Source: an uncultured Planctomycetales bacterium (GTDB lineage: Bacteria > Omnitrophota > Gorgyraeia > Zapsychrales > Fredricksoniimonadaceae). From it: a DNA stretch of 64,000 nucleotides. Under the pieces are notes generated by a model. That model saw nothing but the letters and a program-made list of their open reading frames with translations, was not told the origin of the DNA and searched no databases. Positions 1-24,232 of the stretch are shown one piece after another; the first letter of the stretch is position 1, and every line of letters starts with the position of its first letter. Both the position numbers and the translations under genes were made by a program. The DNA lies in assembly GCA_964520655.1 (NCBI GenBank), contig CAZFNI010000005.1, positions 48,852 to 112,851 of the forward strand, given 5' to 3'.

Positions 1-1
1 T

Positions 2-889
2 CAATACCAGGCACTGAAAGCCAAGGTACCATTAAGAGATCTTTTCCGAAATCCTGAATTAGCTGGGGCGATCACGCTGCAGCCGCTGGAGATCATTGGG
101 GTGGATGCGGCGATCCTATTCGCGGATATTTTAACTATGCCGTCCGGAATGGGGTTCAATGTCGATTTTGTCGACGGTAAAGGGCCGGTGATCGATAATC
201 CCATACGGGGGCCGGAAGACTTAAAACGCTTGGGACGGTACAGCGGTCTGGAATACGTATCCCAAACGATCGGCTTGATCAATAAAGTCATTCCTCAGTC
301 AACTCCACTTATTGGGTTTGCTGGATCACCCTATACGGTATTGACATACTTGTGCCATAAACATCAGCACATGATGTTTGAAGATCCAAAAGCTTTTCAT
401 GGGTATATGAAATTATTAACAGAGAATACCATTCTGTATTTGAAAGACCAGAAGAAAGCGGGCATAAAGGCTTTTCAGTTATTTGACACCTGGGCAGGTT
501 CTTTGCGTCGTACGGAATACGAAGAGTTCGTGCTTCCTTATGTCCAGAAAATATTTAGATCAGTTGATCTGCCGTCGATATATTTCTTAAAGAACTGCGC
601 TCATTTATTTGATCTGATGGATAAAAGCGGAGCAGATATGCTGTCTGTTTGCGAGACAGTCGACATTGCTGAGATCAAAACGAAACGCGGGGTGCAGGGT
701 AATTTGCTAAATTCCATGCTTTATGCGCCAGAAAAAGAGCTGATGGCAGAAGTTGACAGGATCCTCAAAGCAGCCAAGAAACATCACCGCAAATATGTGT
801 TCAATCTCAATCACGGCGTCATGCCGGACGTTGATCCGGAAAAGTTAAAAGCCGTTGTTAAAAGGATCCACCAATTCAAATGGGCATAA
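2..889 (+). CDS. hemE: uroporphyrinogen decarboxylase, 5'-partial (gene begins upstream of window)
   Basis: Frame continues open from window edge (QYQALKAKVPLRDLFRNPELAGAITLQPLEIIGVDAAILFADIL). URO-D family hallmarks are present. Length is consistent with loss of ~60 N-terminal residues. Confidence 0.9.
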   Translation, partial: QYQALKAKVPLRDLFRNPELAGAITLQPLEIIGVDAAILFADILTMPSGMGFNVDFVDGKGPVIDNPIRGPEDLKRLGRYSGLEYVSQTIGLINKVIPQSTPLIGFAGSPYTVLTYLCHKHQHMMFEDPKAFHGYMKLLTENTILYLKDQKKAGIKAFQLFDTWAGSLRRTEYEEFVLPYVQKIFRSVDLPSIYFLKNCAHLFDLMDKSGADMLSVCETVDIAEIKTKRGVQGNLLNSMLYAPEKELMAEVDRILKAAKKHHRKYVFNLNHGVMPDVDPEKLKAVVKRIHQFKWA

Positions 890-2067
890 GATCGATCGCT
901 ATCATAGGTGGAGGCATATCCGGCCTGGCCACACTGCATTTTTTAAAAAAGCGTTTTAAGAATGACGTTTCGGTCACGCTCTATGAAGCCAATGATCGTC
1001 TCGGAGGTAATATCCGCTCGATGAGCGGTGACGGGTGGCTTTTTGAAGCGGGTCCCAATGGTTTTCTTAATAATTCCCCAGCGACGCTGGAATTGATCGA
1101 GGATCTAAATCTTTCTGGTGAGTTGGTCACGGCAGATCCGCTGGCTAAAAGACGTTACATCCAACTCAACGGGCGCCTTCATCTTTTGCCAACTGGATTA
1201 AAAGAATTTGTCAAGACCCCTATTTTATCGGTTTCTGAAAAGTTCCGTCTGATCGCGGGTATCTTTAAGAAGAATGTCTCTGTGGACCAATCGATCTACG
1301 ATTATGTCTCTGCACGTTTCTGCAAAGGGGTTGCCGAAAAGTTAGCTGATCCATTCATGCGGGGTATATTTGGAGGGGATATTAAGAAGCTCCATATGGG
1401 GCACGCTTTCCCTAAAATGAAAAAAGGAGCAATGACTTCTTTTCGAAAAGGGATGGGGCAGGTATTTGAAAGATTCGAAGAAAACTACACTCAGTATATC
1501 ATCAAGGGGAAAAGCATTGATGAGTTAAGTAAGATACAGGCGGATTGGATCATCAGTACTGTGCCAGCATACCAGGCAGCCGCTTTAACGAAGAATCCTG
1601 CATTAGGTGAAATTCATTATTGTACTGTTTCCGTTGTGGGTTTAGGATTTGATGGTTCTGCGTTTACAGTAAAACCGGACGGTTTTGGTTATCTGATCCC
1701 CTCAAACCAAGGTAAAGATATATTAGGCGTTCTTATTGAGAGCAATGTTTATTCACAACGGGCGCCGACTAATGGTGTTATGTTAAGGGTCATGATCGGC
1801 AAGGATGCGCATGCTCAAGAGTTGATCGATCTTGCTGTAAAAGAGTTGGATAGTATCTATGGGCTTAAGGCAAAACCTGTTAGATCCTGGGTTCAGTCGT
1901 GGCCGAGAGCTATTCCTCAATATGAGTTGAATTATCCTGATATATTAGGGAGGGTTTCACTGGATCAAGGAGCTTTAAAGGTTTCAGGTAACTTTATTAA
2001 CGGGATTTCTTTTAACGATTGCATTACAAACGCAAAAGCTATCGCGAATGCTGTGGAGCTCAAATGA
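880..2067 (+). CDS. hemY: FAD-dependent protoporphyrinogen/coproporphyrinogen oxidase (HemY-like), short 395-aa form
   Basis: N-terminal Rossmann dinucleotide motif IAIIGGGISGLATL. Amine-oxidase fold signatures (GGNI, EAGPNGF). ATG overlaps the hemE stop (ATGGGCATAA). Confidence 0.75.
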   Translation: MGIRSIAIIGGGISGLATLHFLKKRFKNDVSVTLYEANDRLGGNIRSMSGDGWLFEAGPNGFLNNSPATLELIEDLNLSGELVTADPLAKRRYIQLNGRLHLLPTGLKEFVKTPILSVSEKFRLIAGIFKKNVSVDQSIYDYVSARFCKGVAEKLADPFMRGIFGGDIKKLHMGHAFPKMKKGAMTSFRKGMGQVFERFEENYTQYIIKGKSIDELSKIQADWIISTVPAYQAAALTKNPALGEIHYCTVSVVGLGFDGSAFTVKPDGFGYLIPSNQGKDILGVLIESNVYSQRAPTNGVMLRVMIGKDAHAQELIDLAVKELDSIYGLKAKPVRSWVQSWPRAIPQYELNYPDILGRVSLDQGALKVSGNFINGISFNDCITNAKAIANAVELK

Positions 2068-3152
2068 TCCATATGATCAACATGAAAAATATACTTAGGA
2101 TACTCTCATCCGTAAAGATCACTGGTTTTTGTTTATTTTGGTTGTTTATATTGACCTTCTGGGGAACAGTGGCCCAAGTATCTCAGGGGTTATATGCAGC
2201 TCAAGAAAGATTTTTCTTTTCGATGTATTTTCTGGCAGCTGGCTTTATACCGTTGCCTGGTGCCCAGGGAGTATTGTGGATTTTATTCATCAACCTGTGC
2301 GCTTCCTCAATCGTTCATTTCTCCAAACTTAAGACATGGCGTTCTTCTGGGCTTAAACTAACGCATCTCGGTATTTTGATCTATTTTGTCGCTGCATTTG
2401 CCACATTTCACTTGACCCAGGAGAGCAATGTGCATTTGATGGAGGGTGAATCGACGAACGTGGGTACTTCCTACTCTGAGTGGGAGATCGCTTCATGGGT
2501 GGATAACGGGTCTCAAAAGCAGGTCTATGCATATGATCTTAAACATATCAAGGCTGGAAATGTTTTTCTCCTCAATGGCGTTGATGTGCGTGTCGAAGAA
2601 TTCTACTCCAATTGCGCCGCATTTACTTCGGATCAAGGTAAGAGTACGGTAAAGAATGCCTCAGGGATCGAGATCCTTAAACCGCAAGCGATGGAAAAAG
2701 AACGGGAAAAGAATGTTGCGGGAGGTGTTTTTAAGATCAATGGTCAATTGGTCCTGCTTTATGGAGATGAGATGCTTCCAACTAAGGTTGATGACAGGAT
2801 GTATCTGCTGCGTCACAAGCGCTACCCATTGCCGTTTATCATAAAACTCAAGAAATTTAAGGCTGAATTCCACCCGGGGACAAATACAGCCAGCAGTTAT
2901 GAAAGTCTGGTTGAGGTGATCAAGCCCAATGCCTCCAGAGATGTGCGAATTTACATGAATAATCCTCTCAGGGAGAAAGATTTTACTTTCTATCAGTCTT
3001 CTTATAATACAGATTCACAGGGGCGGCGTTATTCGACGCTGGCTGTCGTTAAGAACGCGGGGCAAGTGCTGCCGTATATTGCTTGTTTTGTTGTGTTCTT
3101 TGGTTTGGCGCTTCATTTTATTCTAGCGGCCCTGGACCGCAAACGCATATGA
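2064..3152 (+). CDS. resB: cytochrome c biogenesis protein ResB/Ccs1 (System II)
   Basis: Polytopic N-terminus plus large soluble domain typical of the ResB family. ATGA overlap with the hemY stop and ATGA overlap with the ccsA start. An earlier in-frame start at 2019 is possible. Confidence 0.7.
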   Translation: MIHMINMKNILRILSSVKITGFCLFWLFILTFWGTVAQVSQGLYAAQERFFFSMYFLAAGFIPLPGAQGVLWILFINLCASSIVHFSKLKTWRSSGLKLTHLGILIYFVAAFATFHLTQESNVHLMEGESTNVGTSYSEWEIASWVDNGSQKQVYAYDLKHIKAGNVFLLNGVDVRVEEFYSNCAAFTSDQGKSTVKNASGIEILKPQAMEKEREKNVAGGVFKINGQLVLLYGDEMLPTKVDDRMYLLRHKRYPLPFIIKLKKFKAEFHPGTNTASSYESLVEVIKPNASRDVRIYMNNPLREKDFTFYQSSYNTDSQGRRYSTLAVVKNAGQVLPYIACFVVFFGLALHFILAALDRKRI

Positions 3153-5017
3153 AAAAGATAATCATTGTTATACTTGCTGCAATATTGTGGCTAACACCAG
3201 CCCAGGCTGAGGATATCCCCAAACCCTTAAGGTCCTATGAGCTGTTCAAACATATTCCCGTATTGGATGCGGGAAGGATCAAGCCGTTAGATACATTTGC
3301 TCGAAATATTCTGTTGCAATTCTCTGGTAAGGATACGTATGATCGTCGTCCTGCGATCGAATGGTTTGCCAGGCTGTTGTTTGCTCCTGGAGCAGTTAAG
3401 GATGATAAGGTATTCTTGATCAATAATCCGGATATTGCCACGGCATTGGGAATTGAACCGGATACGCATCGCCGTTACTCTTTTGCCCAGCTGCAAAAGT
3501 CTGCTGGGAAATTATTTGGTCTTGCGGATGCCGCTCGTCATATCGAACAAAAGCAGCGCAGCATTGTGGAGGCAGAACTTATTCGCGTCTATGACAATTT
3601 GGAAGCCTATGCTGGACTCACGGAAGTGATGGCTTTTTCTTTTCCGCATGATGATTTTACAGTACAGTCGTCAGATTCGATCAGATCATTTAATTATCCT
3701 TCGGAGATCACTCAATTAAGTTTTTTGGATGTAGCGCTTCACGCCAAAGAGCTTCACGATCAGACATCGTCGCTTGTGAACAAAACTGAAGCTTCACTCA
3801 CGGCCAGCGATAAAGATCTGATGAAATTGTTGCGTAGTTTTGTCAGTTGGTCGTCCATGGGCAGCAGCTCTTCGTTCGCTTTGATCCCTCATTCAGAGCA
3901 TCCAGCTGTATGGATAAGCCCTTTTGAAGCTATCCTTAAAGACTTCAAAAGCGACGAGACCAAATCGATGCTCAGTCTATGGCAGAACATGGCCGCTGCT
4001 TTTTGGAACGGCGATCAGGTCCAATTTGATATTGAAATCAGGCGTTACCTGGAAATTGTCGCGCATCGCTTAGACGTCAAAGATCAGAAAAAGCTTGATA
4101 CTTTTTCATTGGAGATCGCGTATCATCGATTAATGCCATTCTTATGGGCCAGGATATTTTATATTTTGGCATTTATATGTTTTGTAGCTTCATTGATTTC
4201 TACCTCAAGATGGTGGTATACCAGTGCTTTTGCGTTGATCGTTCTTGGTTTTCTGCCGCATTTCGCTGCCCTAGTTGCGCGTATCATCATCATGGCCAGG
4301 CCCCCAGTCACAAGCCTGTATGAGACGTTTATTTTTTGCGCATGCATCTGTGTTGCTTTGGGGATCTGGATCGAGCGTGTCAATAAACAATGGATGGGGA
4401 TCTTAGTTGCTGCTATCAGCGGCAGTGCATTTTTATTCATTGCTTCCCGATATAGTTCTGAAGGCGATACCATGCAAATGCTTGTTGCCGTGCTCAACTC
4501 TAATTTTTGGCTGGCGACCCATGTCACAACGATCACGATGGGCTATGCGGCAACATGTGTCGCTGGTGTTTTAGGACACATTTGGCTGATCCAGGCCTGC
4601 TTTAAAAGAGAGAAAGAAGTCTTAAAGAATACCTATCAGGTCATGATGATCATTCTGGGGATATCGTTAGCATTGACATTCTTAGGGACGAATCTTGGTG
4701 GTATTTGGGCGGATCAAAGCTGGGGCCGGTTTTGGGGATGGGATCCAAAAGAAAATGGTGCGCTGATGATCGTACTTTGGACAGCGATGCTGTTCCATTT
4801 TAAGATCGCAAAAATGATAGGGCCTTTAGGAATGGCCGTTGGGGTATCGTTAGGAGTTGTGGTTGTCATGTGGGCCTGGTTTGGTGTTAATTTACTCAGT
4901 ATTGGCCTTCATTCCTATGGTTTTACTTCAGGGATCGCTAATGCACTATTATTGTACTTGATCATTGAGATCATTTTCCTTGGGGTGACATCCTATTTTG
5001 CCAAAAAAAATGCTTAG
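3149..5017 (+). CDS. ccsA: cytochrome c biogenesis heme-handling protein CcsA/ResC, long form with N-terminal periplasmic domain
   Basis: Signal peptide MKKIIIVILAAILWLTPAQA. C-terminal W-rich WWD heme-binding motif (WADQSWGRFWGWDPKENGAL) with flanking conserved His-containing TM helices. Confidence 0.85.
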   Translation: MKKIIIVILAAILWLTPAQAEDIPKPLRSYELFKHIPVLDAGRIKPLDTFARNILLQFSGKDTYDRRPAIEWFARLLFAPGAVKDDKVFLINNPDIATALGIEPDTHRRYSFAQLQKSAGKLFGLADAARHIEQKQRSIVEAELIRVYDNLEAYAGLTEVMAFSFPHDDFTVQSSDSIRSFNYPSEITQLSFLDVALHAKELHDQTSSLVNKTEASLTASDKDLMKLLRSFVSWSSMGSSSSFALIPHSEHPAVWISPFEAILKDFKSDETKSMLSLWQNMAAAFWNGDQVQFDIEIRRYLEIVAHRLDVKDQKKLDTFSLEIAYHRLMPFLWARIFYILAFICFVASLISTSRWWYTSAFALIVLGFLPHFAALVARIIIMARPPVTSLYETFIFCACICVALGIWIERVNKQWMGILVAAISGSAFLFIASRYSSEGDTMQMLVAVLNSNFWLATHVTTITMGYAATCVAGVLGHIWLIQACFKREKEVLKNTYQVMMIILGISLALTFLGTNLGGIWADQSWGRFWGWDPKENGALMIVLWTAMLFHFKIAKMIGPLGMAVGVSLGVVVVMWAWFGVNLLSIGLHSYGFTSGIANALLLYLIIEIIFLGVTSYFAKKNA

Positions 5018-6164
5018 TGTACAAAAAGCCTTCCGGATCGTTTTACGTCATTCTCGATTGACGCGTGACATAGCCTGCCCATTAGAAGATTCCGTTGGAA
5101 AGATCTTGAGAGAAAACATCTATGCGGATCGACCGTATCCGCCATTTGATAAAGCCTTAATGGACGGCATTGCCATTTCCTATAAAAGCTGGAAGGCGGG
5201 AGTGCGGTCGTTTCGTATCGAAAATATCATCCCTGCTGGTGTTCCCTTAAAACATTTAAATGATCCGGCATGTTGTGTAAAGATCATGACAGGAGCGGTT
5301 GTTCCGCGTGAGGTGGATTGCATTATTCCCATTGAACGTGTCAAGATAAAGAATGATACTGCTTATATTCTGGATCAGGAAATTCATCCGGGTCAATATA
5401 TTCGTCGTCAGGGTATGGATATTGAAAAAGGTGGGATGATCTTAAAAAAGGGGATAAAGATCTCACCGGCTCATGTCGGCGCTATTGCTTCTGTTGGCAA
5501 AAGATCGATCAAAGTATCAAAGAGCATACGCATCATGCTTGTGGTAACGGGAGATGAATTAGTGGATGTTGGAGTCCCCATCAGATCATTTCAAACACGC
5601 TTTTCCAATGCTTATGCGTTAAGCGCGGCGCTGGAAAGTACGGCTTTGGCTGTTGTTGATTTTGCTCATGTGAATGATGATATCCGGGATTTACGGGTAT
5701 ATTTGAAAAGATCATTAGAAGAATATGATCTGGTTGTTCTCAGCGGCGGGGTATCGAAAGGGGATTATGATCATATCCCTTCTGTTCTAAAAGATTTAGA
5801 AGTCAAAGCAGTATTTCACGGCGTCAACCAAAAACCGGGAAAGCCTTTGTGGTTTGGTATCTCAAAGGACAAAAGGCCTGTTTTTGCCTTGCCCGGTAAT
5901 CCTGTGTCATCACTGTTATGCGCGTATCGTTACATTATTCCGTTTTTATATTCAATGGCAGGAGGTGAATATCTTCAATGCTTCCTGAATTTGGACCTAA
6001 AAATTCCATCTCATGGAACGATCTTTTTGCCTGTTGCCAAGGGCAAGGTTCTTCAACACGGTGGTTCCGGGGATATTGTTTCGTGGGCTCACGCAGAAGG
6101 ATTTATCGAATATGATCAACAAGACAGCTCCACTTTACGGCCTTATTTTAGCTGGCGGATATAG
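5010..6164 (+). CDS. moeA: molybdopterin molybdotransferase MoeA
   Basis: MoeA N-terminal, MoCF-biosynthesis and C-terminal domains (LPGNPVSS motif). ATG overlaps the ccsA stop. Confidence 0.85.
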   Translation: MLSVQKAFRIVLRHSRLTRDIACPLEDSVGKILRENIYADRPYPPFDKALMDGIAISYKSWKAGVRSFRIENIIPAGVPLKHLNDPACCVKIMTGAVVPREVDCIIPIERVKIKNDTAYILDQEIHPGQYIRRQGMDIEKGGMILKKGIKISPAHVGAIASVGKRSIKVSKSIRIMLVVTGDELVDVGVPIRSFQTRFSNAYALSAALESTALAVVDFAHVNDDIRDLRVYLKRSLEEYDLVVLSGGVSKGDYDHIPSVLKDLEVKAVFHGVNQKPGKPLWFGISKDKRPVFALPGNPVSSLLCAYRYIIPFLYSMAGGEYLQCFLNLDLKIPSHGTIFLPVAKGKVLQHGGSGDIVSWAHAEGFIEYDQQDSSTLRPYFSWRI

Positions 6165-6702
6165 CAAGCGGATGGGGCAAGATAAAGCCCTGATCGACTT
6201 CCACGGTAAGCCCCAGGTAAACTATTGTTTTGACCTTGTATCAAAATTTTGTGAGCAGGTTTTTGTATCTGTTCGTGCTGACCAAAGGTATTTTAATTTA
6301 CCGCTGCTCAAAGACCGCGAGCAATATGCCAATCACGGCCCATTAGGGGGGATACTTTCCGCAATGGGGAGTTATCCGGATGTTTCGTGGCTAGTACTGG
6401 CTTGCGATTTACCATTAGTTGAAGAAAAGACCATTCGATTCCTTATTGCTCATCGAGAGGCATCAAAGATCGCTACAGCGTTTAAGAGCTCTGGGGATCA
6501 ATTGCCTGAACCTTTATGTGCTGTTTGGGAGTCACATGGCTTCAATGAGTTATTGGAAAGCTTTACAAAGGGGATCTTTTGTCCGCGAAAGATCCTGATC
6601 AATTCCAATGCGAATCTATTAACCTTGCCTGATGATCGATGGCTGCGTAATTTTAATTCTCCAACTGATCTAGATCATTTCTCCAGGGAAACGTTTTCTT
6701 AA
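6112..6702 (+). CDS. mobA: molybdenum cofactor guanylyltransferase MobA
   Basis: LYGLILAGGYSKRMGQDKALI nucleotide-binding motif. ~196 aa from the internal ATG. Overlaps the moeA 3' end. The upstream ATG at 6013 is judged unlikely. Confidence 0.8.
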   Translation: MINKTAPLYGLILAGGYSKRMGQDKALIDFHGKPQVNYCFDLVSKFCEQVFVSVRADQRYFNLPLLKDREQYANHGPLGGILSAMGSYPDVSWLVLACDLPLVEEKTIRFLIAHREASKIATAFKSSGDQLPEPLCAVWESHGFNELLESFTKGIFCPRKILINSNANLLTLPDDRWLRNFNSPTDLDHFSRETFS

Positions 6703-6791
6703 AAGTTTGATATTCAATTGAAATGGGTTAGGGTTCGGGTATACTTGAAATAGGACATTTTTGTGGAAGTGCCCCAGAAAGTGACATAAGC

Positions 6792-7592
6792 ATGTACCGG
6801 ATCTTGATCGTTGATGATGAGCATGATGTGGTTGACCTGACCCGTAAGCGTTTGATCAAAGACGGCTATGAGGTCTATCCCGCCTATAATGGCCAAGAAG
6901 CCTATCAATTGACTGTTAAATATGTGCCCGATCTGATCATCTCTGATGTATTAATGCCTGTCATGAATGGTTTTGAATTCTGCAAAGCGGTCAGAGATAA
7001 CGAAAAGACGAGAGATATCCCCATTATCATCATGACTGGAAACCGTTCGGACATGCAGGATGCTTTTTTATTCCTGGGGATAAAGGATATTCTGCATAAG
7101 CCTTTCAACCTTGATCAGCTTGAAGAAAAGATCAAGCAGCATTTGGGTTTGGCAAAACAGCTGCACACACAAAAAACAAAATTATTATTTCACTGTGTGC
7201 GTTCCGCCAAGATGGCTGCGACTAAGGCTGTTATTGAATCCATTCCTCAATGGCTTCCCAAATTTGTCACCTCGGGAGCGGAATTGATCGCTCGTGCAAA
7301 AGAATTCCAACCGGAAGTGGTGGTGGTTGATCTATTCATGAACGATATGCCGGTTGATGAGGCATTATTATGTTTAAAAGCGATCCCTCAATTAAAAGAT
7401 TCCCAGATCGTCACGTATTACAGCCCGATCGCGGAGGGGGATGAATATATTATCCAGGCGCGCATGATCGAGATCCAGTATCTTAAGGCGGCAACTGCTG
7501 CTGCCGGTGCCAAAGAATATTTAGGCCCTTTGAACAACCCCGCTAATTTTGTTGCCTTATTTGACGACTACCGCAAAGACTATGCTGTCTAG
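6792..7592 (+). CDS. response regulator with tandem receiver domains (REC + degenerate pseudo-REC), no output domain
   Basis: REC1 has a complete acidic pocket and phospho-acceptor (VDDE...ISDVLMP...IIMTG...HKP). The second domain is REC-like but lacks the N-terminal DD pair (LLFHC...VVVDLFM...YYSP). Confidence 0.8.
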   Translation: MYRILIVDDEHDVVDLTRKRLIKDGYEVYPAYNGQEAYQLTVKYVPDLIISDVLMPVMNGFEFCKAVRDNEKTRDIPIIIMTGNRSDMQDAFLFLGIKDILHKPFNLDQLEEKIKQHLGLAKQLHTQKTKLLFHCVRSAKMAATKAVIESIPQWLPKFVTSGAELIARAKEFQPEVVVVDLFMNDMPVDEALLCLKAIPQLKDSQIVTYYSPIAEGDEYIIQARMIEIQYLKAATAAAGAKEYLGPLNNPANFVALFDDYRKDYAV

Positions 7593-7603
7593 GCAGGTGC
7601 CCC

Positions 7604-8665
7604 ATGATCATCGTAGGTCTTAACCATAAAACAGCTCCGATCGAAATAAGAGAAAAGTTTTTTTTAAACCCCACTGAAGCAGATTTGTTGCTGTTGGAAT
7701 TGAAAAATAATCCCGCGATCAGTGAGGCGTTTGTTCTTTCGACGTGCAATCGCGTCGAAGTGTACCTTAAATCTATCCATCGTGATCTGCCAAAAGATTT
7801 TGTCCTGCAGTTGATATCAAAAGTCAAAAAAACGCAGCTGCCTGCTGAATTGCTACAGCATCTGTATTTTTATGAAGGGCAGGACGCTGTTGAACATTTA
7901 TTAAAAGTGACCAGCGGACTGGATTCACTGGTCATTGGTGAAAAGCAAATATTAGGCCAAGTCAAGAATGCGGTGGAAAGAGCAAGAGAATTAGGAACGA
8001 TCTCACGATATTTTAATATTTTGACGAACATCGCTATCAGGGCAGGGAAAAAATCACAGCAAGAAACCAATATTTCTTTTGGCGGCTCTTCTATCAGCTG
8101 GGCAGCGATCGCGATGGCAGAGCAGCTATTGGGAGATCTGGCGGGGAAATGTGTTCTGGTCATTGGTGCGGGTAAAATGGGGGAGCTGGCATTAAGGAAT
8201 TTAAATGACAAGGGCGTCGGCAAACTTTATTTGATGAACCGCAACGGAGAGAAGGCGGAACGTTTAGCGAAAGAATACAATGGGGTTCCGGCCTCATTCT
8301 GGGACATACAAAAACTATTGTTGGAGATCGATCTGTGTATTTGTTCAGTGGGAGCGCCGCACCATATCCTGGAAAGTTCCAATCTTAGTAAGCTTCTTCC
8401 AAAACGAGAAGGAAAGGAGCTAGTGTTCATTGATATTTCCATGCCGCGCAACATTGACCCGGACATAGGACTGCTGCCTTCTGTTAAGTTGAGATCGATC
8501 GATGATTTATCTGAGGTGGTTAACGAAAATTTAAAAAAGAGACAGGGCTCTGTCGGCGATGTTCATTCGATCATCCGGCAGAAAATGCTGGAATTTGAAA
8601 TTAAGCTTGAAAAGCTAAAAGCATTGAACAATTCCGATTTCTTTGAACCCAAAGAGAATAAATAA
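7604..8665 (+). CDS. hemA: glutamyl-tRNA reductase, short form (353 aa, abbreviated C-terminal dimerisation region)
   Basis: MIIVGLNHKTAPIEIREKF...STCNRVEVY catalytic Cys motif. NADPH-binding GAGKMGELA. Lies 11 nt downstream of the receiver gene. Confidence 0.9.
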   Translation: MIIVGLNHKTAPIEIREKFFLNPTEADLLLLELKNNPAISEAFVLSTCNRVEVYLKSIHRDLPKDFVLQLISKVKKTQLPAELLQHLYFYEGQDAVEHLLKVTSGLDSLVIGEKQILGQVKNAVERARELGTISRYFNILTNIAIRAGKKSQQETNISFGGSSISWAAIAMAEQLLGDLAGKCVLVIGAGKMGELALRNLNDKGVGKLYLMNRNGEKAERLAKEYNGVPASFWDIQKLLLEIDLCICSVGAPHHILESSNLSKLLPKREGKELVFIDISMPRNIDPDIGLLPSVKLRSIDDLSEVVNENLKKRQGSVGDVHSIIRQKMLEFEIKLEKLKALNNSDFFEPKENK

Positions 8666-8668
8666 CTT

Positions 8669-8833
8669 ATGAAAGATATTGGCTGGACAATCCTGGCTGA
8701 ATTCCTATTTCTATTTTTTGCAGGTTATTTTATGGATCAGCATTGGGGAACTGGGTGTGTTTGGACGTTGACCGGTATTGGCCTGGCTTTTGTGATGATC
8801 GGATATGAGATCTGGAAGTTAACCAAGAAATAA
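8669..8833 (+). CDS. AtpZ/AtpI-like small membrane protein (54 aa, 2 TM) preceding atpB
   Basis: Translation found by hand: MKDIGWTILAEFLFLFFAGYFMDQHWGTGCVWTLTGIGLAFVMIGYEIWKLTKK. Starts 3 nt after the hemA stop. Position and two-helix topology match the ATPase_gene1 family. Below the 60-aa cutoff of the ORF track. Confidence 0.6.
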   Translation: MKDIGWTILAEFLFLFFAGYFMDQHWGTGCVWTLTGIGLAFVMIGYEIWKLTKK

Positions 8834-8879
8834 ACATATTTGCTTGATTCTCCAAAGGATATAAATTACTATATCTGCC

Positions 8880-9659
8880 ATGCAAGCTTCAGGCCACGCA
8901 GAACCTTTTCTGTTAGACCAATACGTGATTCATCATATCCAGGATTCAAAAGAGTGGCATTTACCATTCTTAGAGCCTATTCATTTGCCTGGATTCTTGT
9001 CCATGCATTCTCTTATGTTGATTTTTTGCATGGGACTGCTGATATATTTATTTTGTTTTGCCTACCGAAAGAATGACCGCGTTCCTACAGGTGTAACCAA
9101 TTTATTAGAGTCATTCGTGCAGTTTGTCCGTGATGAGATCGCGATCCCCTCACTGGGGCATGAAGATGGGATAAAATTGACCCCACTTTTTTGCACACTG
9201 TTTTTCTTTATCCTGGGCCTGAATATCATTGGTCAGATCCCCTTGTTTGCCGCGGCAACAGCCAATATCAGCGTGACAGCCCCGCTGGCATTGATCGTAT
9301 TTTATATCATGACTGTAGGGGCCATACAAAAGAATGGTTTTGGCGGATTTTTGAAGGCTTTTGTCCCTTCAGGCGTTCCCAAATTGATCTTGCTACTGAT
9401 CGTCCCGTTAGAAGTGCTGGGCTTATTCATTAAAACATTTGCCTTGATGATCCGCTTGTTTGCCAATATGCTGGCAGGTCACATGGTTGTTTCGTCATTA
9501 TTAGGATTGGTAGTGCTGTTTGGGGCTTGGGCGACCCCTGCGATCGCCTTGGCGGTAGGTATATCGTTACTTGAAGTCCTGGTTGTTTTTTTGCAGGCGT
9601 ATATTTTTGTTTTATTGTCAGCGGTGTTTATCGGACAGATCCATCATCCGGAACATTAA
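8880..9659 (+). CDS. atpB: F0F1 ATP synthase subunit a
   Basis: Conserved stator arginine context LMIRLFANMLAGHMVV. 5-6 TM helices. Confidence 0.9.
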   Translation: MQASGHAEPFLLDQYVIHHIQDSKEWHLPFLEPIHLPGFLSMHSLMLIFCMGLLIYLFCFAYRKNDRVPTGVTNLLESFVQFVRDEIAIPSLGHEDGIKLTPLFCTLFFFILGLNIIGQIPLFAAATANISVTAPLALIVFYIMTVGAIQKNGFGGFLKAFVPSGVPKLILLLIVPLEVLGLFIKTFALMIRLFANMLAGHMVVSSLLGLVVLFGAWATPAIALAVGISLLEVLVVFLQAYIFVLLSAVFIGQIHHPEH

Positions 9660-9675
9660 TCATTCAACATCCTAA

Positions 9676-9927
<252 letters not shown>

Positions 9928-9938
9928 AGGATCCAATT

Positions 9939-10466
9939 ATGGAGAATACTTCAGTTGAAGCAAAAGTTGCTGCTTCATCCGGCGGTAATTTTTTAAGTCC
10001 AGAGCTTTCCATGATGCTCTTGACCTGGCTGACCTTTTTTATTTTGCTGGCTATTTTAAAGAAATTCGCTTTTAAGCCGATACTGGAAACCCTGCAGAAA
10101 CGAGAGGATTTTATCCGTAAGTCATTAGATGACGCGGATAAAGCCAAGCAACAGTTGGCTCAAATAGATCTTGAAAAAACCCAGATCATCAATACAGCCA
10201 AGGCTCAGGCAGCCAGCATCATTGATGAAGCGCGCAAAGCTGCGACTGTGATTGCTCATGAAACAGAGAATAAAGCTAGGACCAATGCTCAGGAGATGCT
10301 GACGAATGCCCAATCCCAGATCGAGGGAGAACGGCAAAAGGTACGTTTGGCTTTAAGGAAGGAAAGTGTTGACGTGGCCATACAGCTGGCTGGAAAGATC
10401 CTTAAGGAAAATACGGATACTGACAAGAACAGACGGCTTGTACAAGAGGCTGTTAAAGAACTATGA
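9939..10466 (+). CDS. atpF: F0F1 ATP synthase subunit b
   Basis: Single N-terminal TM helix followed by a long charged helix (KAKQQLAQIDLEKTQIINTAKAQAASIIDEARKAA). Start taken at MENTSVEA (ORF-track start 9891 is a possible alternative). Confidence 0.85.
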   Translation: MENTSVEAKVAASSGGNFLSPELSMMLLTWLTFFILLAILKKFAFKPILETLQKREDFIRKSLDDADKAKQQLAQIDLEKTQIINTAKAQAASIIDEARKAATVIAHETENKARTNAQEMLTNAQSQIEGERQKVRLALRKESVDVAIQLAGKILKENTDTDKNRRLVQEAVKEL

Positions 10467-10999
10467 GTTCCATTCAGATCTGTCAACGGTATGCGAAAAG
10501 CTTATATTCTTTGGCCCAGGATCAAGGGGTTGTTGAAGAGGTTTATGCCTGTTTACAATCCCTGGGACAGATCATTGAGCAGAGTGCGGACCTGCGGGAT
10601 TTTTTAGGGAATCCGTTGCTTGCGCAGTCGGAACGCCAAAAAGTCATCGCAGCGGTTTTTTCTGGAAAAGTCCCTGCGTTGGTAGAAAAATTTTTATATT
10701 TTATCAATCAAAAGAACCGCTTAAATCGATTAAGAGGTATCATCGACGCATTTGATGCTTTATATCTTCAGGCGCATAATCGGTTGCGTGCTCAGGTTCA
10801 GGTCGCTTTACCGCTAGAGCTGTCTGTGAAAGAGCAGATCTTGGCGCAATTAAGCAGGAAATATGGTAAGGATGTGCTGGCTTCATGGCAGATCCGCCAG
10901 GAGATCTTGGGTGGTTTTCGTATATTGATCGAAGGATATTTGCATGATTATAGTTTTACGGATCAATTGAATAAATACCGTCAGGAAGTTTTAGGTTGA
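10463..10999 (+). CDS. atpH: F0F1 ATP synthase subunit delta (OSCP)
   Basis: Start [18 protein letters not shown] typical of OSCP family. ATGA overlap with atpF. Confidence 0.85.
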
Positions 11000-11036
11000 C
11001 GGTGAAGCTGGTGCATATAACAAAAGAGGGAATACA

Positions 11037-12551
11037 ATGGCGAATCAATTAAATCCAGATGAAGTAAGTTCAATTTTAAAAAGAGAACTGAGCGATTTCA
11101 AAAGTAAGGTTGAGACTTATGAGATCGGTACGGTGCTCAACGTCGGCGACGGTATTGCACGTGTTCATGGTTTAAACAATGTCATGTCGGGTGAGATCGT
11201 TGAGTTTTCCAATGGTGTAAAGGGGATCGCGCTGAATTTGGAGCAGGATAATGTTGGGGTGGCTGTATTCGGAGAGGATTATCTGGTCAAGGAAGGCGAC
11301 GAAGTGCGCCGGACGGGTAAGATCGCCACAGTCCCTGCAGGCGAAGCCTTGTTGGGGCGTATTGTCGACGGATTAGGAACGCCAATTGATGGACAAGGTC
11401 CGGCAAAAGCAACATCCTATCAACAGATCGAGCTTAAAGCGCCGGGGATCATCGATCGCAAGAATGTGCATGAACCCATGCAGACAGGGATCAAGGTTAT
11501 CGATGCTTTGACGCCTATTGGCCGAGGGCAGCGTGAGTTGATCATCGGAGACCGCAAGACTGGTAAAACAACGCTTGCGATCGATGCGATCATTAACCAA
11601 AAAGGAAAAGGTGTTTATTGCTTTTATGTGGCGATAGGGCAAAAGAGGTCTACGGTTGTTCAAATTTATGAAAAGCTCAAGAAGTACGGGGCTATGGAGT
11701 ATACGACCATTATCGCGGCAACCGCTTCTGATCCGGCCCCGATGCAATTTTTGTCCCCTTATGCCGGATGCGCGATGGCGGAATATTTCCGGGATAACGG
11801 CAAACATGCGCTGATTATTTATGATGACCTGACAAAACAAGCTCAGGCTTACCGTCAATTGTCATTATTGTTGCGCCGTCCGCCAGGACGGGAAGCATAT
11901 CCTGGGGATATTTTCTATTTGCATAGCCGTTTGCTGGAAAGAGCGGCAAAGTTAAGTGATGCCAAGGGGGCGGGCAGTTTAACGGCTCTGCCGATCATCG
12001 AAACGCAGGCGGGTGACGTTTCGGCCTATATTCCGACGAACGTGATCTCGATCACGGATGGTCAAATATTTCTGGATACGGATCTCTTTAACGCAGGTCA
12101 GCGTCCAGCCATTAATGCAGGATTGTCTGTGTCCCGCGTCGGAGGTGATGCCCAGGTCAAAGCCATGAAGCAAACAGCGGGAAGTTTGCGACTGGAATTA
12201 GCGCAATACCGTGAATTAGCAGCATTTTCACAGTTTGCCTCGGACTTAGATCCGGCCACGCGCAAGCAGTTAGACCGCGGCAAGCGTTTGATGGAGTTGA
12301 TCAAGCAGGGCATACAAGTACCTTTACCTGTGGTTAAGCAGGTCGCCATCATTTACGCGGGTGTCAATGGCTACTTGGATGATATGCCTGTCGGAAAGGT
12401 CAAGGCATTTGAAGAGTATCTGCATATTCAGCTTGATGCTAAATACCAGTCCTTCGTGGAGATGTTCAACAAGAACTTGAGCATGACCGATGAGATCAAG
12501 GATGCGTTAAAGAAAATATTAACAGATGTTAAAGGGACGTTCGCAGGATGA
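11037..12551 (+). CDS. atpA: F0F1 ATP synthase subunit alpha
   Basis: Walker A GDRKTGKT and ATP-synt_ab signatures. 504 aa. Confidence 0.97.
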
Positions 12552-13414
12552 TCGGTATCAGGGAATATAATAAAAAGATCGGGTCTCTCAAAAATACCCG
12601 TAAGATGACAAAGACCATGAAAATGGTCTCTGCCAGTAAATTCAAAAGGGCCTACAAAGCTCAGTCCAATGCGCAGGAATATGCCCTAAAACTTGGCGAT
12701 CTTGTTGCCCGTTTATCCTCATTCTCTGACGGCCGCCACCCTTTGATGAAAACAAAGAAAGTCAATAACAATGCCCTGATCCTTGTCGTTACCTCTGATA
12801 AAGGCTTGTGCGGAGGGTTTAACAATAATCTTGTCCGTGAGATCAAACGGTGGCATAAAGAAAATCCTTACAAATACACCAAGCTGGATTTTTCATTCTG
12901 CGGCAAAAGAGGGTATATGATGTTCCGCCGGCATGTGACCATAAAAACGTTCTTTGAAGATGTGACGGTAAAACCTTCGTTTAAGGATGCCCTCAGGGTT
13001 TCGGCAGATCTCAAAGAAAGGTTTATCAACGGGGAATATGATGAGGTGTATATCGCTTATAATCGTTTTAATTCCCCATTGTCTCAAACACCTGTTATTG
13101 AAAAGATCCTCCCTTTAAGCACAGCCAATGCTCCCAAAGCAATTAATGCTTCTACCGGTGATTATGAATATGAACCCGCACAGCAGGAACTTTTTGATCT
13201 CTTGGTCCCGAAATTCTTGGATTTTAAGATCTTTTACACGTTCTTGGAAAATGCAGCAGGCGAACATGGGGCTCGTATGACCGCCATGGACAAGGCCTCA
13301 TCGAACACGGCGGATCTGATCGACCGGTATACATTACTGCGTAACAGGGCGCGTCAGGCGGCAATTACGACAGAACTTATTGAGATCATTTCAGGTGCGG
13401 AAGCTCTTAAATAA
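12548..13414 (+). CDS. atpG: F0F1 ATP synthase subunit gamma
   Basis: [22 protein letters not shown]-terminal gamma signature. ATGA overlap with atpA. Confidence 0.9.
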
Positions 13415-15090
<1,676 letters not shown>

Positions 15091-15101
15091 GCGAGGTGTC
15101 T

Positions 15102-15275
15102 ATGCCCGTCTTAACGGAAAAAAAACCGATCACGGTATTTAAGATCAAGAACCGCAGCGGATATGCAGCGATCTGCGACGAGCATTTAACCGAAGGCCAA
15201 AGCGAAGCTGAAGCCATCGACCGCATGAACAAAGCGTTAGACCGCACGTTGCGTAAAGAAACACAAAAACAATGA
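15102..15275 (+). CDS. HicB-like / UPF0150-family small protein (57 aa)
   Basis: Hand translation: MPVLTEKKPITVFKIKNRSGYAAICDEHLTEGQSEAEAIDRMNKALDRTLRKETQKQ. The GYAAICDEHLTEGQSEAEAIDRMNKAL segment resembles the Y-A-CPEL...G.T.EEA..N..EA core of the HicB/UPF0150 fold. Stop overlaps the NUDIX ATG (ATGA). Lies 11 nt after atpC. Confidence 0.5.
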   Translation: MPVLTEKKPITVFKIKNRSGYAAICDEHLTEGQSEAEAIDRMNKALDRTLRKETQKQ

Positions 15276-15832
15276 AAAAGATCGGCTCCAAGATCGTTTA
15301 TGAAGGCAGCTGGTTATCTGTCGAAGAAGCCCAATACACCAATCAAGATGGTAAGCTCTATACATGGGAATCGGTTCACCGCAAGCGTTCCAGCGTTGGA
15401 GTTGTTGTCGTTGCCAAATTAGTTCCTTCGAATCGTTTTATTCTTATCAAACAATTCCGCCCGGCCATTGAAGGGTATATTCTTAGTGTTCCTGCCGGTC
15501 TTGGGTTCGATGATCCTGATCATGGGTTGGTTGAATTAAAGGAAGAAACCGGCTATGTGGGACGCATTGTAGAAACCAGTCCCGTTCTTAAAACAGGTGC
15601 TTCATTGATCAACGACAGTGCCCGTATCGTCTATGTTGAAGTCGATGAACATTTACCAGCTAATCAGCACCCTGTCCAGGAGCTTGAATCAGCTGAAGAT
15701 ATCCAGGTTTGTTTGGTCCAAGACACCGCAGCAAAAGATTATATTTTAGATGAAGCCAAAAAAGGTGTTCATATTGCGGCGAATTTATGGTATCTTTTCG
15801 GTTTGCCTAAATATTTGCCGAAAGAAAAATAA
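15272..15832 (+). CDS. NUDIX hydrolase (ADP-ribose pyrophosphatase-like)
   Basis: Nudix box region PAGLGFDDPDHGLVELKEETGYVG. Confidence 0.75.
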   Translation: MKKIGSKIVYEGSWLSVEEAQYTNQDGKLYTWESVHRKRSSVGVVVVAKLVPSNRFILIKQFRPAIEGYILSVPAGLGFDDPDHGLVELKEETGYVGRIVETSPVLKTGASLINDSARIVYVEVDEHLPANQHPVQELESAEDIQVCLVQDTAAKDYILDEAKKGVHIAANLWYLFGLPKYLPKEK

Positions 15833-16720
15833 ATGCCTTACGATCCTCAGAATCCTCAACAAAGTCACAATGAATCCCAAGAAAAAAAAGGACTTTTCGG
15901 TGTCATCATTCACTCCTTTTTTGTGGTCCCATTCTTACTGGCCATTCTTAGCGTGTTGATGTTCGCTGCGGTAAGGATCCTGACAATGGAAAAACATTCC
16001 GTTTATGATTATTTGAACGACATCAAAAAGGGAGGGATCGATAAGCGCTGGCAAGCTGCATTTGAACTGTCCCGTATTTTAACAAGTCAGAAAGAAGTGC
16101 CTCAAGACCAGCAGTTCATCACAAAGATGGAAGAGGCTTTTAATGCATCATCCAGCGACGATGAACGCGTCAGGCAATATTTGATCCTGGCAATGGGCCG
16201 CAGCCAGCGCGTGGAATTTGTAAATCCGCTTTTAAAAGCGCTTCCACGTGAAAAAGATGAAAATGTATATGCAATTATCACTGCACTTGGTATACTGAAA
16301 TCCAATATTTCGGTCAGTGCTCTTTTAAAATATTTGGATCATCCCAATGCGCGCATCCGCTTGGCATCGGTCATCTCTTTAGGACAGATCGCTGCACCGC
16401 AGACAGCGGGTTCTCTAAAGAAAATGCTTCAAGACAGTGAACCCAACGTAACCTGGGATGCGGCTATAGCTTTGGCTAAAATGGGAGACAAGAGCGGTAA
16501 GGCGATAATTTTAAGTTTGATGGATAGGGAGCACCTGAAAAATTATCCAAACCTCTCACCCGAAAATGTCAGTAAGATCATTAGCGTTGCTATTAATGCG
16601 ACATTTGCCTGGAAGGATGATGACATTAAGCAGTCATTGATCAAATTATTTCAGATCGATCCTAATATGAATGTTCGTGCACTGGCGCATCATAGTTTAG
16701 AAAAATACAATAGTCCTTAA
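15833..16720 (+). CDS. membrane-anchored HEAT-repeat (PBS-lyase-like) protein
   Basis: N-terminal TM helix (FFVVPFLLAILSVLMFAAV) then repeated helical pairs (RWQAAFELSRIL / ERVRQYLILAMG / IRLASVISLGQIA / TWDAAIALAKMGD / NVRALAHHSLEK). ATG directly follows the NUDIX stop. Confidence 0.7.
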   Translation: MPYDPQNPQQSHNESQEKKGLFGVIIHSFFVVPFLLAILSVLMFAAVRILTMEKHSVYDYLNDIKKGGIDKRWQAAFELSRILTSQKEVPQDQQFITKMEEAFNASSSDDERVRQYLILAMGRSQRVEFVNPLLKALPREKDENVYAIITALGILKSNISVSALLKYLDHPNARIRLASVISLGQIAAPQTAGSLKKMLQDSEPNVTWDAAIALAKMGDKSGKAIILSLMDREHLKNYPNLSPENVSKIISVAINATFAWKDDDIKQSLIKLFQIDPNMNVRALAHHSLEKYNSP

Positions 16721-23335: not shown

Positions 23336-24232
23336 TCAGGACCTCTTACGATCATTGCGGTTGATCATATCGTAGAAGAGCTGCGTGGCTTTTGAGAACA
23401 CTTTCTGGTTCTTATAGATGATAGATAGCGGGCGTTTAAAATTCATGTCTTTGACAGGGAGGATATCAAAGGACTTGCTTTTTATCTCTTGAGTAACGGT
23501 GGAGATAGGCAGTATCGAGCAGCCCACGCCCACATCGATCGCGTTCTTGATAGTTTCAATATTACTGTATACTTTGATGATATTGGGGCGGATCGATTTA
23601 TCGTGAAGGTATTGCTCGATCGCTTTTCCTGTTTGTGTCGTTGTATCAAAGCCAATAAAATCAACTCCATTCAAGTCTTCCAGGCGAAGGTTCCTTTTTT
23701 TTAGTAGAGGGTGGAGCTTAGACTGAACCAGCACCAGATCTTCCTCAGAAAAGATCTTTACCGTACATCCCGGCATGGGCTTTGGGTAAGCGACAAGCCC
23801 GAAGTCGGCTGTACCTTTTTTTATAGCCTCGTAAATATCATCCTGATGCATATATTCCAAGTTCACATTAATGTCAGGGTATTTCTTTAAGAGATGTTGA
23901 AGGATAGGCTTTAGCTGGTAAAGCCCCATGGTATAGATGGAAACAATGTGTATTGTTCCGGCATAATGCTTATTGTTCTCAGTGATCTTCGAGTGGGCAT
24001 TAGCGTATACTTCCAGCATTTGGCGCGCATAGGACATCAATATCTGCCCATCAGGCGTCAGAACGATCTTTTTTAAGGAACGTTCGAAAAGGATGCAGTG
24101 GAAATGCTTCTCAAGGATCTGGATATGCTGAGTCACGGCTGGCTGAGTGATGTTGTTCTTTTCTGCCGCAAGACGGAATGACCCGGTTTCAGCCACAGAG
24201 ATAAAAGTTTTAAAGAAGAATAAATTGATCAT
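23336..24232 (-). CDS. LysR-family transcriptional regulator
   Basis: N-terminal HTH FKTFISVAETGSFRLAAEKNNITQPAVTQHIQILE. LysR substrate-binding domain. Divergent from the nikM-hox operon. Confidence 0.9.
   Translation of the reverse strand: MINLFFFKTFISVAETGSFRLAAEKNNITQPAVTQHIQILEKHFHCILFERSLKKIVLTPDGQILMSYARQMLEVYANAHSKITENNKHYAGTIHIVSIYTMGLYQLKPILQHLLKKYPDINVNLEYMHQDDIYEAIKKGTADFGLVAYPKPMPGCTVKIFSEEDLVLVQSKLHPLLKKRNLRLEDLNGVDFIGFDTTTQTGKAIEQYLHDKSIRPNIIKVYSNIETIKNAIDVGVGCSILPISTVTQEIKSKSFDILPVKDMNFKRPLSIIYKNQKVFSKATQLFYDMINRNDRKRS

Follow-up and report, generated by a model that had tools for sequence, protein, structure and literature searches.

An orphan receiver and pseudo-receiver protein, REC-X, encoded upstream of the hemA-atp unit in Omnitrophota

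The 64,000-nucleotide (nt) stretch of contig CAZFNI010000005.1 analysed here as a whole, which will be referred to as the window, encodes a response regulator of 266 amino acids (aa) that consists of a canonical receiver domain (REC1) followed by a pseudo-receiver and carries no output domain. The gene of this protein, here named REC-X, lies directly upstream of hemA, which encodes a short glutamyl-tRNA reductase (GluTR) and is followed by the genes of the ATP synthase. A first-pass annotation of the DNA had proposed that REC-X controls the activity or stability of GluTR in a phosphorylation-dependent manner. We conclude that the locus consists of two separate things lying side by side, an ordinary short hemA heading the atp genes and an accessory orphan regulator, REC-X. 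The latter may act by protein contact on a partner from haem or respiratory metabolism, a general model that we put at about even chances.

6792-7592, plus strand: REC-X gene, output-less tandem-receiver response regulator of 266 aa (open reading frame list, Pfam, AlphaFold2, Foldseek)
6792-7157, plus strand: REC1, canonical phospho-receiver, residues 1-122 (PF00072, Foldseek)
7170-7592, plus strand: pseudo-receiver, residues 127-266 (AlphaFold2, hhalign, profile search of the PDB)

A canonical receiver and a pseudo-receiver in one protein

REC1 matched the Pfam family Response_reg (PF00072) with residues 4-115 over the full profile (E 1.9e-28, 99.3 bits at a cut-off of 30.2) and holds all five catalytic residues, namely the acidic pair D8 and D9, the phospho-acceptor position D52, T82, and K103 followed by P104. 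AlphaFold2 predicted the (βα)5 fold with strands at residues 3-7, 27-31, 48-52, 78-82 and 99-102 and helices between them, and Foldseek superposed the domain on the solved receivers of RR468, VicR, PhoP and CheY4 with template modelling (TM) scores of about 0.9 and root-mean-square deviations (rmsd) of 1.1-1.7 Å. Judged by its residues, REC1 of the window looks fully phosphorylation-competent.

The C-terminal half of REC-X yielded no Pfam call (E = 0.16 for a receiver) and no further domain. The AlphaFold2 model, built on a 25-sequence family alignment, nevertheless consists of two successive (βα)5 domains with a long helix between them (mean predicted local distance difference test score 88.3; predicted TM score, pTM, 0.56). 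Strands of the second domain comprise residues 129-134, 154-159, 176-180, 205-210 and 242-246, each followed by a helix, the fourth of which spans residues 218-237 and carries an insertion of about 16 residues. For the whole model the best PDB match found by Foldseek was the REC1-REC2 tandem of PleD (about 270-290 columns, E of about 1e-15). Aligning a profile of the C-terminal domain to REC1 of the same protein by hhalign gave a probability of 93.7%, placing D180 on D52 and the segment GAKEYLGPF on GIKDILHKPF, and a search of the PDB with the same profile returned receiver domains only (best E 4e-5). Within this receiver fold the acidic pair is replaced by H134 and C135, positions that are never acidic in the 25 sequences, and the lysine by an invariant G245, whereas the aspartate equivalent D180 is retained and invariant. 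Because of these replacements the domain is a pseudo-receiver, a diverged receiver in the sense of the published definition, that is, a receiver-like domain without key catalytic residues (PMC12632262). The two receiver folds and the linker helix account for all 266 aa, so that the earlier reading of REC-X as an output-less pair of a receiver and a degenerate receiver was borne out by Pfam for REC1 and by AlphaFold2, Foldseek and hhalign for the second domain.

Besides D180, the invariant positions of the pseudo-receiver comprise the motif YY(S/T)P at residues 209-212, with Y209 and Y210, as well as Q229, K232 and EYLG at residues 242-245. They fall at the ends of β3, β4 and β5 and on helix 4, that is, at the pseudo-active site and on the face by which receivers usually meet their partners. 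This distribution points to a putative conserved binding surface at the pseudo-active site.

The REC-X family is small, with about 26 full-length clusters among 5.8 billion proteins, and a search of 1.84 billion proteins with the pseudo-receiver domain yielded no more than 40 representatives at E<=1e-3. Conservation of the phospho-acceptor site was analysed in 25 orthologues, 13 of which keep the full residue set. At position 9, the second, Mg-binding acidic site, 13 of them have Asp, as against Glu in six, Lys in two and another residue in four, and position 52 is Asp in 23 and Asn in two; T/S82 and K103 are each kept in 24. A scan of metagenomes with the family alignment made use of REC1 patterns, and 77 of the 80 loci obtained carry unrelated gut-bacterial receivers, the remaining three (L091-L093) being family members. 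The more distant tandem-receiver relatives P0027 and P0036, with about 30% identity, are not located near hemA and stand in signalling or unrelated contexts. Two further members, P0246 and P0248, sit on contigs of about 1 kb, which are uninformative for gene context save for a tandem paralogue. On the 1.1-kb contig of P0246 (L172), two genes of the family follow each other (2-157 and 199-990); the first is represented by a C-terminus ending in DEYLGAFSPGTFLNLINAYRNDL, the 263-aa paralogue P0246 begins 41 nt after it, and no hemA start occurs within 165 nt downstream.

The hemA-atp unit and the position of REC-X

The gene downstream of REC-X and the elements discussed in this section are located as follows.

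7604-8665, plus strand: hemA, GluTR of 353 aa without the C-terminal dimerisation domain (TIGR01035, Pfam)
8633-8644, plus strand: conserved C-terminal S-D-F-F motif of HemA, residues 344-347, where the truncated spinal helix ends
8669-8833, plus strand: atpZ/ATPase_gene1, 54 aa (PF09527, E 1.3e-5)
6718-6745, plus strand: promoter-like site TTGAAA-16 nt-TATACT in the 89-nt intergenic region between mobA and REC-X (consensus match and phylogenetic footprint)

Gene context was readable for twelve REC-X loci, namely the window and the related loci L001-L004, L081, L083, L084 and L090-L093. The lengths of both proteins and the 11-nt gap between their genes (7593-7603) had been given exactly in the first-pass annotation, and the adjacency on which it had built recurs beyond the window in eleven independent loci: REC-X is located directly upstream of a short hemA in all twelve, at REC-X identities between 89% and 37% and at distances of 6-128 nt. 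The gene on the other side of REC-X varies and encodes MobA, a 337-aa NHL-repeat protein or a secreted protein of about 950 aa. The last of these, a signal-peptide protein of about 950-970 aa without a Pfam domain, is found between mobA and REC-X in two clades (L084, 2065-4914; L092, 1861-4767); its N-terminal 330 or so residues share 53% identity across these loci (E 2e-111), and the window holds no homologue.

Five loci were reached through HemA homologues instead (L088, L089, L090, L173 and L174), and REC-X is missing from all of them except L090. In its absence mobA adjoins hemA in L088 and L173, a P-type ATPase gene occupies the slot upstream of hemA in L089, and unrelated glycosyltransferase and methyltransferase genes lie there in L174. 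The arrangement hemA-atpZ-atp is kept in all 16 loci, with or without REC-X, and the order hemA-atpZ-atpB was the same in L084, L088, L089, L090, L173 and L174. The deeply conserved unit is hemA-atpZ-atp. REC-X identity declines in step with HemA identity, and in a neighbour-joining tree of HemA the REC-X lineages fall into three clades with REC-X-less lineages interleaved. Both observations argue for REC-X being an accessory gene that is old within the group, was inherited vertically together with hemA and was probably lost repeatedly.

As the first-pass annotation had stated, hemA of the window is joined to the atp operon. The 54-aa atpZ, which starts 3 nt past the hemA stop codon, bridges hemA and atpB, E, F, H, A, G and D, which follow from 8880. 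This F1Fo ATP synthase operon (hemA-atpZ-atpBEFHAGD; 7604-14839 in the window) is led by hemA in 16 of 16 Omnitrophota loci, even where the upstream genes differ completely, and such a phylum-wide fusion of a GluTR gene to the atp operon is unusual.

HemA of the window was recognised as GluTR by TIGR01035 with 349.3 bits (cut-off 209.55) over profile positions 2-338 of 416. Its Pfam domains are GlutR_N and Shikimate_DH only, and the dimerisation domain PF00745 gave no Pfam match in the protein. The abbreviated C-terminus noted before was evident from alignment to full-length enzymes, which ends at residue 327 of 404 of the Methanopyrus kandleri GluTR (1GPJ) and at residue 370 of 472 of the Arabidopsis GluTR, so that the chain stops within the spinal helix. 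The catalytic Cys in the segment STCNR aligns to the active-site region of 1GPJ and the NADPH motif GAGKMG to GAGEMG. Compared with canonical GluTR (1GPJ; Arabidopsis 4N7R), HemA retains the NADPH-binding domain, the first part of the spinal helix and a catalytic domain with the nucleophilic Cys, but is devoid of the 65-75 or so C-terminal residues forming the V-shaped-dimer domain and has a short tail with the SDFF motif instead. The 120 best HemA homologues, at 57-100% identity, all have lengths of 346-367 aa and contain GlutR_N and Shikimate_DH only; those with a name come from Omnitrophica. The short GluTR is, on this comparison, the normal, phylum-wide form of Omnitrophota and appears to be catalytically complete without the dimerisation domain. 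A peculiarity of REC-X genomes, which the short HemA was also considered to be, is ruled out by this phylum-wide occurrence, and since the short form is present without REC-X as well, its truncation is not linked to REC-X and is no sign of adaptation to it. The model for the short chlamydial-type HemA (NF001909, 338 positions) matched HemA of the window only weakly (59 bits), and because of this weak match the Omnitrophota enzyme is taken as an independent short form, distinct from the chlamydial type. A motif [ST]D[FY][FY] occurs within the last 35 residues of 117 of the 120 homologues (P0121-P0240), whether REC-X is present or not; the SDFF tail may be a docking motif or degron standing in for the function of the missing dimerisation domain.

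Directly upstream of hemA, 13 of the 16 loci carry a promoter-like element. In it TTGATT(GTC) (TTGATTGTC) is separated by 17 nt from the extended -10 element TTTGnTAtAgT (TTTGCTATAGT), and it was located at 6802-6862 in L002, 6793-6868 in L003, 4816-4874 in L004, 8796-8903 in L081 and 8781-8863 in L083, as well as in L088, L173 and L174. Ten of the twelve REC-X loci carry it between REC-X and hemA, and it also precedes hemA in three of the four loci without REC-X. Several loci have the element only 6-9 nt from the ATG, an arrangement that suggests a leaderless or very short-leader hemA mRNA. The window and L001 lack it, and only these two show tight junctions between REC-X and hemA (11 and 6 nt, respectively). 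Co-transcription or translational coupling of REC-X and hemA is, as far as can be read from the junctions, not a conserved trait. Since the element is present in most relatives and absent from the window and L001, the single REC-X-hemA-atp unit of the window would be secondary; the ancestral order appears to have been REC-X, hemA promoter and hemA-atp, followed by a lineage-specific fusion. An internal hemA promoter within the 3′ end of REC-X was also considered for the window and ruled out, because the spacer of the only candidate (TTGACG, 14 nt, TATGCT) is out of range. The promoter-like site upstream of REC-X (6718-6745) agrees with the sigma-70-type consensus at 10 of 12 positions, which puts it in the top three within 16 kb, and neither of its hexamers differs among the window, L001 and L002, unlike the variable spacer and flanks.

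A palindrome follows just downstream of the hemA -10 element in L003 (about 6832-6860), L083 (about 8830-8862) and L093 (about 735-790), and is clade-specific. It is of the type CCAGTAT...ATACTGG, with arms of up to 13 bp, and reads TAGTCCAGTATCA...TGATACTGGACTA in L083, where the arms have this full length. Such a palindrome could represent an operator or a hairpin in the 5′ untranslated region controlling hemA-atp. Searching positions 1-16000 of the window for Rfam elements gave no match.

Nearly the entire window (1-64000) is one co-directional island of respiratory and energy genes. Haem synthesis, cytochrome c maturation, molybdenum cofactor and ATP synthase are all represented, with hemE, hemY, resB, ccsA, moeA, mobA, hemA and atpZ-atp as well as REC-X, alongside genes for Rieske/cytochrome b, for a multihaem cytochrome c of 986 aa and for a HEAT protein. 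The island further comprises NuoF/G-like proteins with a NiFe hydrogenase, hypFDE, pyruvate:ferredoxin oxidoreductase, COX1/2 (haem-copper oxidase), ctaA/B, SCO1 and aconitases. Only two regulators are present in the 64 kb, REC-X and a divergent LysR (23336-24232, minus strand). Neither a histidine kinase (HisKA/HATPase_c) nor che genes were detected within the window or in the flanks of L081, L083, L084 and L090, and genes for methyl-accepting chemotaxis proteins and flagella were absent from the 64 kb and from the flanks of the related loci. REC-X stands as an orphan, with no other two-component gene in the island. The possibility raised at first that it might be a CheY-like chemotaxis component can be dismissed, as che genes are absent nearby and REC-X possesses a second domain, which CheY does not have.

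Three details of the gene models upstream may be added. The listed open reading frames of moeA (4998-6164) and mobA (6013-6702) overlap by about 150 nt, and since the Pfam match of MobA begins at residue 43, the real mobA start is probably an internal Met. MoeA of the window gave no match to the MoeA_C domain, which is present in MoeA of L173. The incomplete hemE at the left edge is not a truncation, as the gene runs off the window. The organism of the window is a Candidatus Omnitrophota; its closest genomic relatives are metagenome-assembled genomes of this group, part of which are mislabelled as uncultured Planctomycetales.

Possible partners and roles of REC-X

The general model of a contact-acting regulator would comprise the following steps. 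An unlinked kinase or a small phosphodonor would phosphorylate D52 of REC1, and phosphorylation would re-pack REC1 against the pseudo-receiver, by analogy with the PleD stem, thereby changing the oligomeric state or the exposure of surfaces. The pseudo-receiver surface in the β3/β4/α4/β5 region (D180, YY(S/T)P, Q229, K232, EYLG) might then bind a partner protein, in parallel to DrdR with PilB and PilT. REC1 would thus be the switch, at least in the lineage of the window, and the pseudo-receiver the adaptor or output. A partner from haem or respiratory energy metabolism is the most plausible one because REC-X always heads hemA-atp inside an island of haem, cytochrome and respiration genes. The window lineage presumably lost the ancestral hemA promoter, and REC-X-hemA-atp would form one transcription unit driven from upstream of REC-X.

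Several observations weigh against this reading. We infer the partner from gene position only, and in a strongly syntenic block the adjacency of REC-X and hemA can last by inheritance alone; the gap between the two genes moreover offers insertions so small a target that they are uninformative. REC-X is missing from four of the five loci sampled through HemA, and most related genomes run the same short GluTR and atp operon without it. Where both are present, the promoter-like element between them in ten of twelve loci means that their co-expression is not assured. As for the switch itself, the catalytic quintet is incomplete in 12 of the 25 orthologues, with changes such as D9K and D52N. Phosphorylation is therefore not a conserved requirement of the family, and these substitutions rule out a phospho-switch as the way in which all REC-X proteins act. 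Finally, a pTM of 0.56 leaves the packing of the two domains undefined, and a PleD-like re-packing is an analogy.

The adjacency might also be purely historical. REC-X would then be a generic orphan signalling protein (a phosphate sink, for example, a connector in a phosphorelay or the regulator of some unrelated process) that was inserted once near the hemA promoter in an ancestor, was passed on with the syntenic region and has a target unrelated to haem or ATP synthesis. The block hemN-hemE-hemY-moeA-mobA-(slot)-hemA-atp is indeed syntenic across the group, with the slot empty or filled by the P-type ATPase gene, and REC-X was apparently lost repeatedly without visible change in its neighbours. 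Separate promoter-like elements in most loci, the tandem-receiver relatives of about 30% identity that occur away from hemA, and the contig with two REC-X paralogues in tandem are consistent with this explanation as well. Nevertheless, REC-X occupies exactly this place in three HemA clades, at identities as low as 37%, although the gene upstream of it has changed, it is the only signalling gene in the 64-kb respiratory island, and the clade of the window has brought REC-X and hemA closer together (6-11 nt) rather than apart. We regard a purely historical adjacency as possible but not likely.

In a model built on the first-pass annotation, REC-X would bind GluTR itself and control its activity, oligomeric state or proteolytic stability in a phospho-dependent manner, similar to adaptors of the RssB/CpdR type. 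A variant, which we regard as just as doubtful, has the phosphorylated tandem receiver docking on GluTR, perhaps with its pseudo-receiver pocket on the spinal helix or the SDFF tail, and so fixing the oligomeric state, activity or turnover of the enzyme. The constant hemA side of REC-X in 12 of 12 loci, as opposed to its changing upstream neighbour, and the short junctions in the window and L001 argue for a direct relation of the two proteins. Moreover, GluTR of the window has no dimerisation domain of its own, and the REC1-REC2 module of the PleD type is a phospho-dependent dimeriser. GluTR is also under post-translational control in other organisms: it is turned over by Lon and ClpAP in Salmonella. 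In S. aureus the protein acting on it is HemX (PMC5801465); plants have GBP for this purpose (PMC6597238), and control by FLU/Clp is known as well. Control by a receiver protein had been called a mechanism not described so far, and a limited literature search likewise found none, which would be in keeping with a novel type of control.

The proposal is nevertheless weak, as it derives from adjacency and is further weakened by several results. The short GluTR with its SDFF tail is phylum-wide and the same where REC-X is missing, as it is in most of the HemA-sampled loci, and no alignment column of HemA co-varies with the presence of REC-X among 14 sequences with and 4 without it, a small sample that makes this a weak negative. 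A separate promoter-like element lies between the genes in most REC-X loci, and about half of the orthologues no longer have an intact phospho-acceptor pocket. Furthermore, hemA is tied at least as tightly to atpZ and atp, and its adjacency to REC-X does not single out GluTR. Direct control of GluTR is therefore rather unlikely in our view, and even as the single best candidate for the partner of REC-X the enzyme is a tentative choice with low probability.

Least probable is that REC-X controls expression of hemA-atp, for instance by binding a sigma or anti-sigma factor, RNA polymerase or a partner that itself binds DNA at the hemA promoter or operator: regulators are commonly encoded beside the promoters they control, REC-X ends 0-60 nt before the conserved hemA element and the -10 element is followed by an operator- or hairpin-like palindrome in L003, L083 and L093, but REC-X consists of two receiver folds without a DNA- or RNA-binding domain or any further Pfam match in its C-terminal half, the region holds no Rfam element, the palindrome is not shared by all clades, and the lineage of the window kept REC-X though that hemA promoter was lost.

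Significance and likeness to known systems

As the evidence stands, the general model of REC-X as a contact-acting orphan describes a small, Omnitrophota-specific family of receiver and pseudo-receiver proteins with a sharply conserved pseudo-active-site surface. The mechanisms of pseudo-receiver domains are largely unknown as a class (PMC12632262), and if REC-X acts on GluTR it would offer a rare functional handle on them. It would then also be the first example of a two-component receiver protein exerting protein-level control over the rate-limiting enzyme of haem synthesis, placing the first committed step of tetrapyrrole synthesis, together with the co-transcribed ATP synthase, under direct post-translational control by a two-component protein. 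As a by-product, the analysis describes an SDFF-ended Omnitrophota GluTR without dimerisation domain that heads the ATP synthase operon, which raises the question of how such an enzyme functions and channels its substrate to glutamate-1-semialdehyde (GSA) aminomutase without the V-shaped dimer.

Its architecture places REC-X among the stand-alone tandem-receiver regulators, a class already represented by DrdR, FrzZ and RedD. The order of its domains is that of the REC1-REC2 stem of PleD from Caulobacter (1W25, 2V0N, 2WB4, 9G85), in which a phosphorylatable REC1 is followed by a degenerate adaptor REC2, and PleD is also the best NCBIfam match of REC1. PleD, however, has a C-terminal GGDEF diguanylate cyclase output that is absent from REC-X. 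Membership of the PleD family (NF007135) was ruled out accordingly, as there is no GGDEF domain and the match reached 87.7 bits at a cut-off of 474, covering REC1 only. The relative orientation of the two domains does not superpose on that of PleD either (rmsd of about 16 Å at a pTM of 0.56).

FrzZ and RedD of Myxococcus xanthus are output-less dual receivers acting by protein contact or phosphotransfer. Both receivers of FrzZ are phosphorylatable, and the genes of FrzZ and RedD lie with those of chemosensory or kinase partners, whereas REC-X has one pseudo-receiver and no signalling neighbours. The ClpXP adaptors RssB and CpdR, which stand behind the idea of an effect on GluTR stability, are likewise response regulators that steer the stability of their targets by contact. 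CpdR consists of a single receiver, and RssB ends in a PP2C-like domain; unlike REC-X, neither possesses a pseudo-receiver, and a protease link is not apparent at the locus of the window. RssB models matched REC-X below their cut-offs (NF007969, 71.4 bits at 329; the Pseudomonas-type NF045505, 51.5 bits at 700).

DrdR of Xanthomonas campestris offers a precedent for an orphan tandem-receiver regulator that acts on enzymes, as it binds and stimulates the ATPases PilB and PilT (PMC13507683). Its catalytically dead pseudo-receiver is still essential (PMC13507683). DrdR and REC-X share two receiver folds without output, one canonical and one dead, and the absence of an adjacent kinase. They differ in domain order, the pseudo-receiver preceding the receiver in DrdR and following it in REC-X, as well as in phylum and in the type IV pilus target of DrdR, and the likeness is one of architecture. 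DrdR is a known case of an output-less receiver and pseudo-receiver regulator working on enzymes through contact, and REC-X most likely represents a new small family of this known kind.

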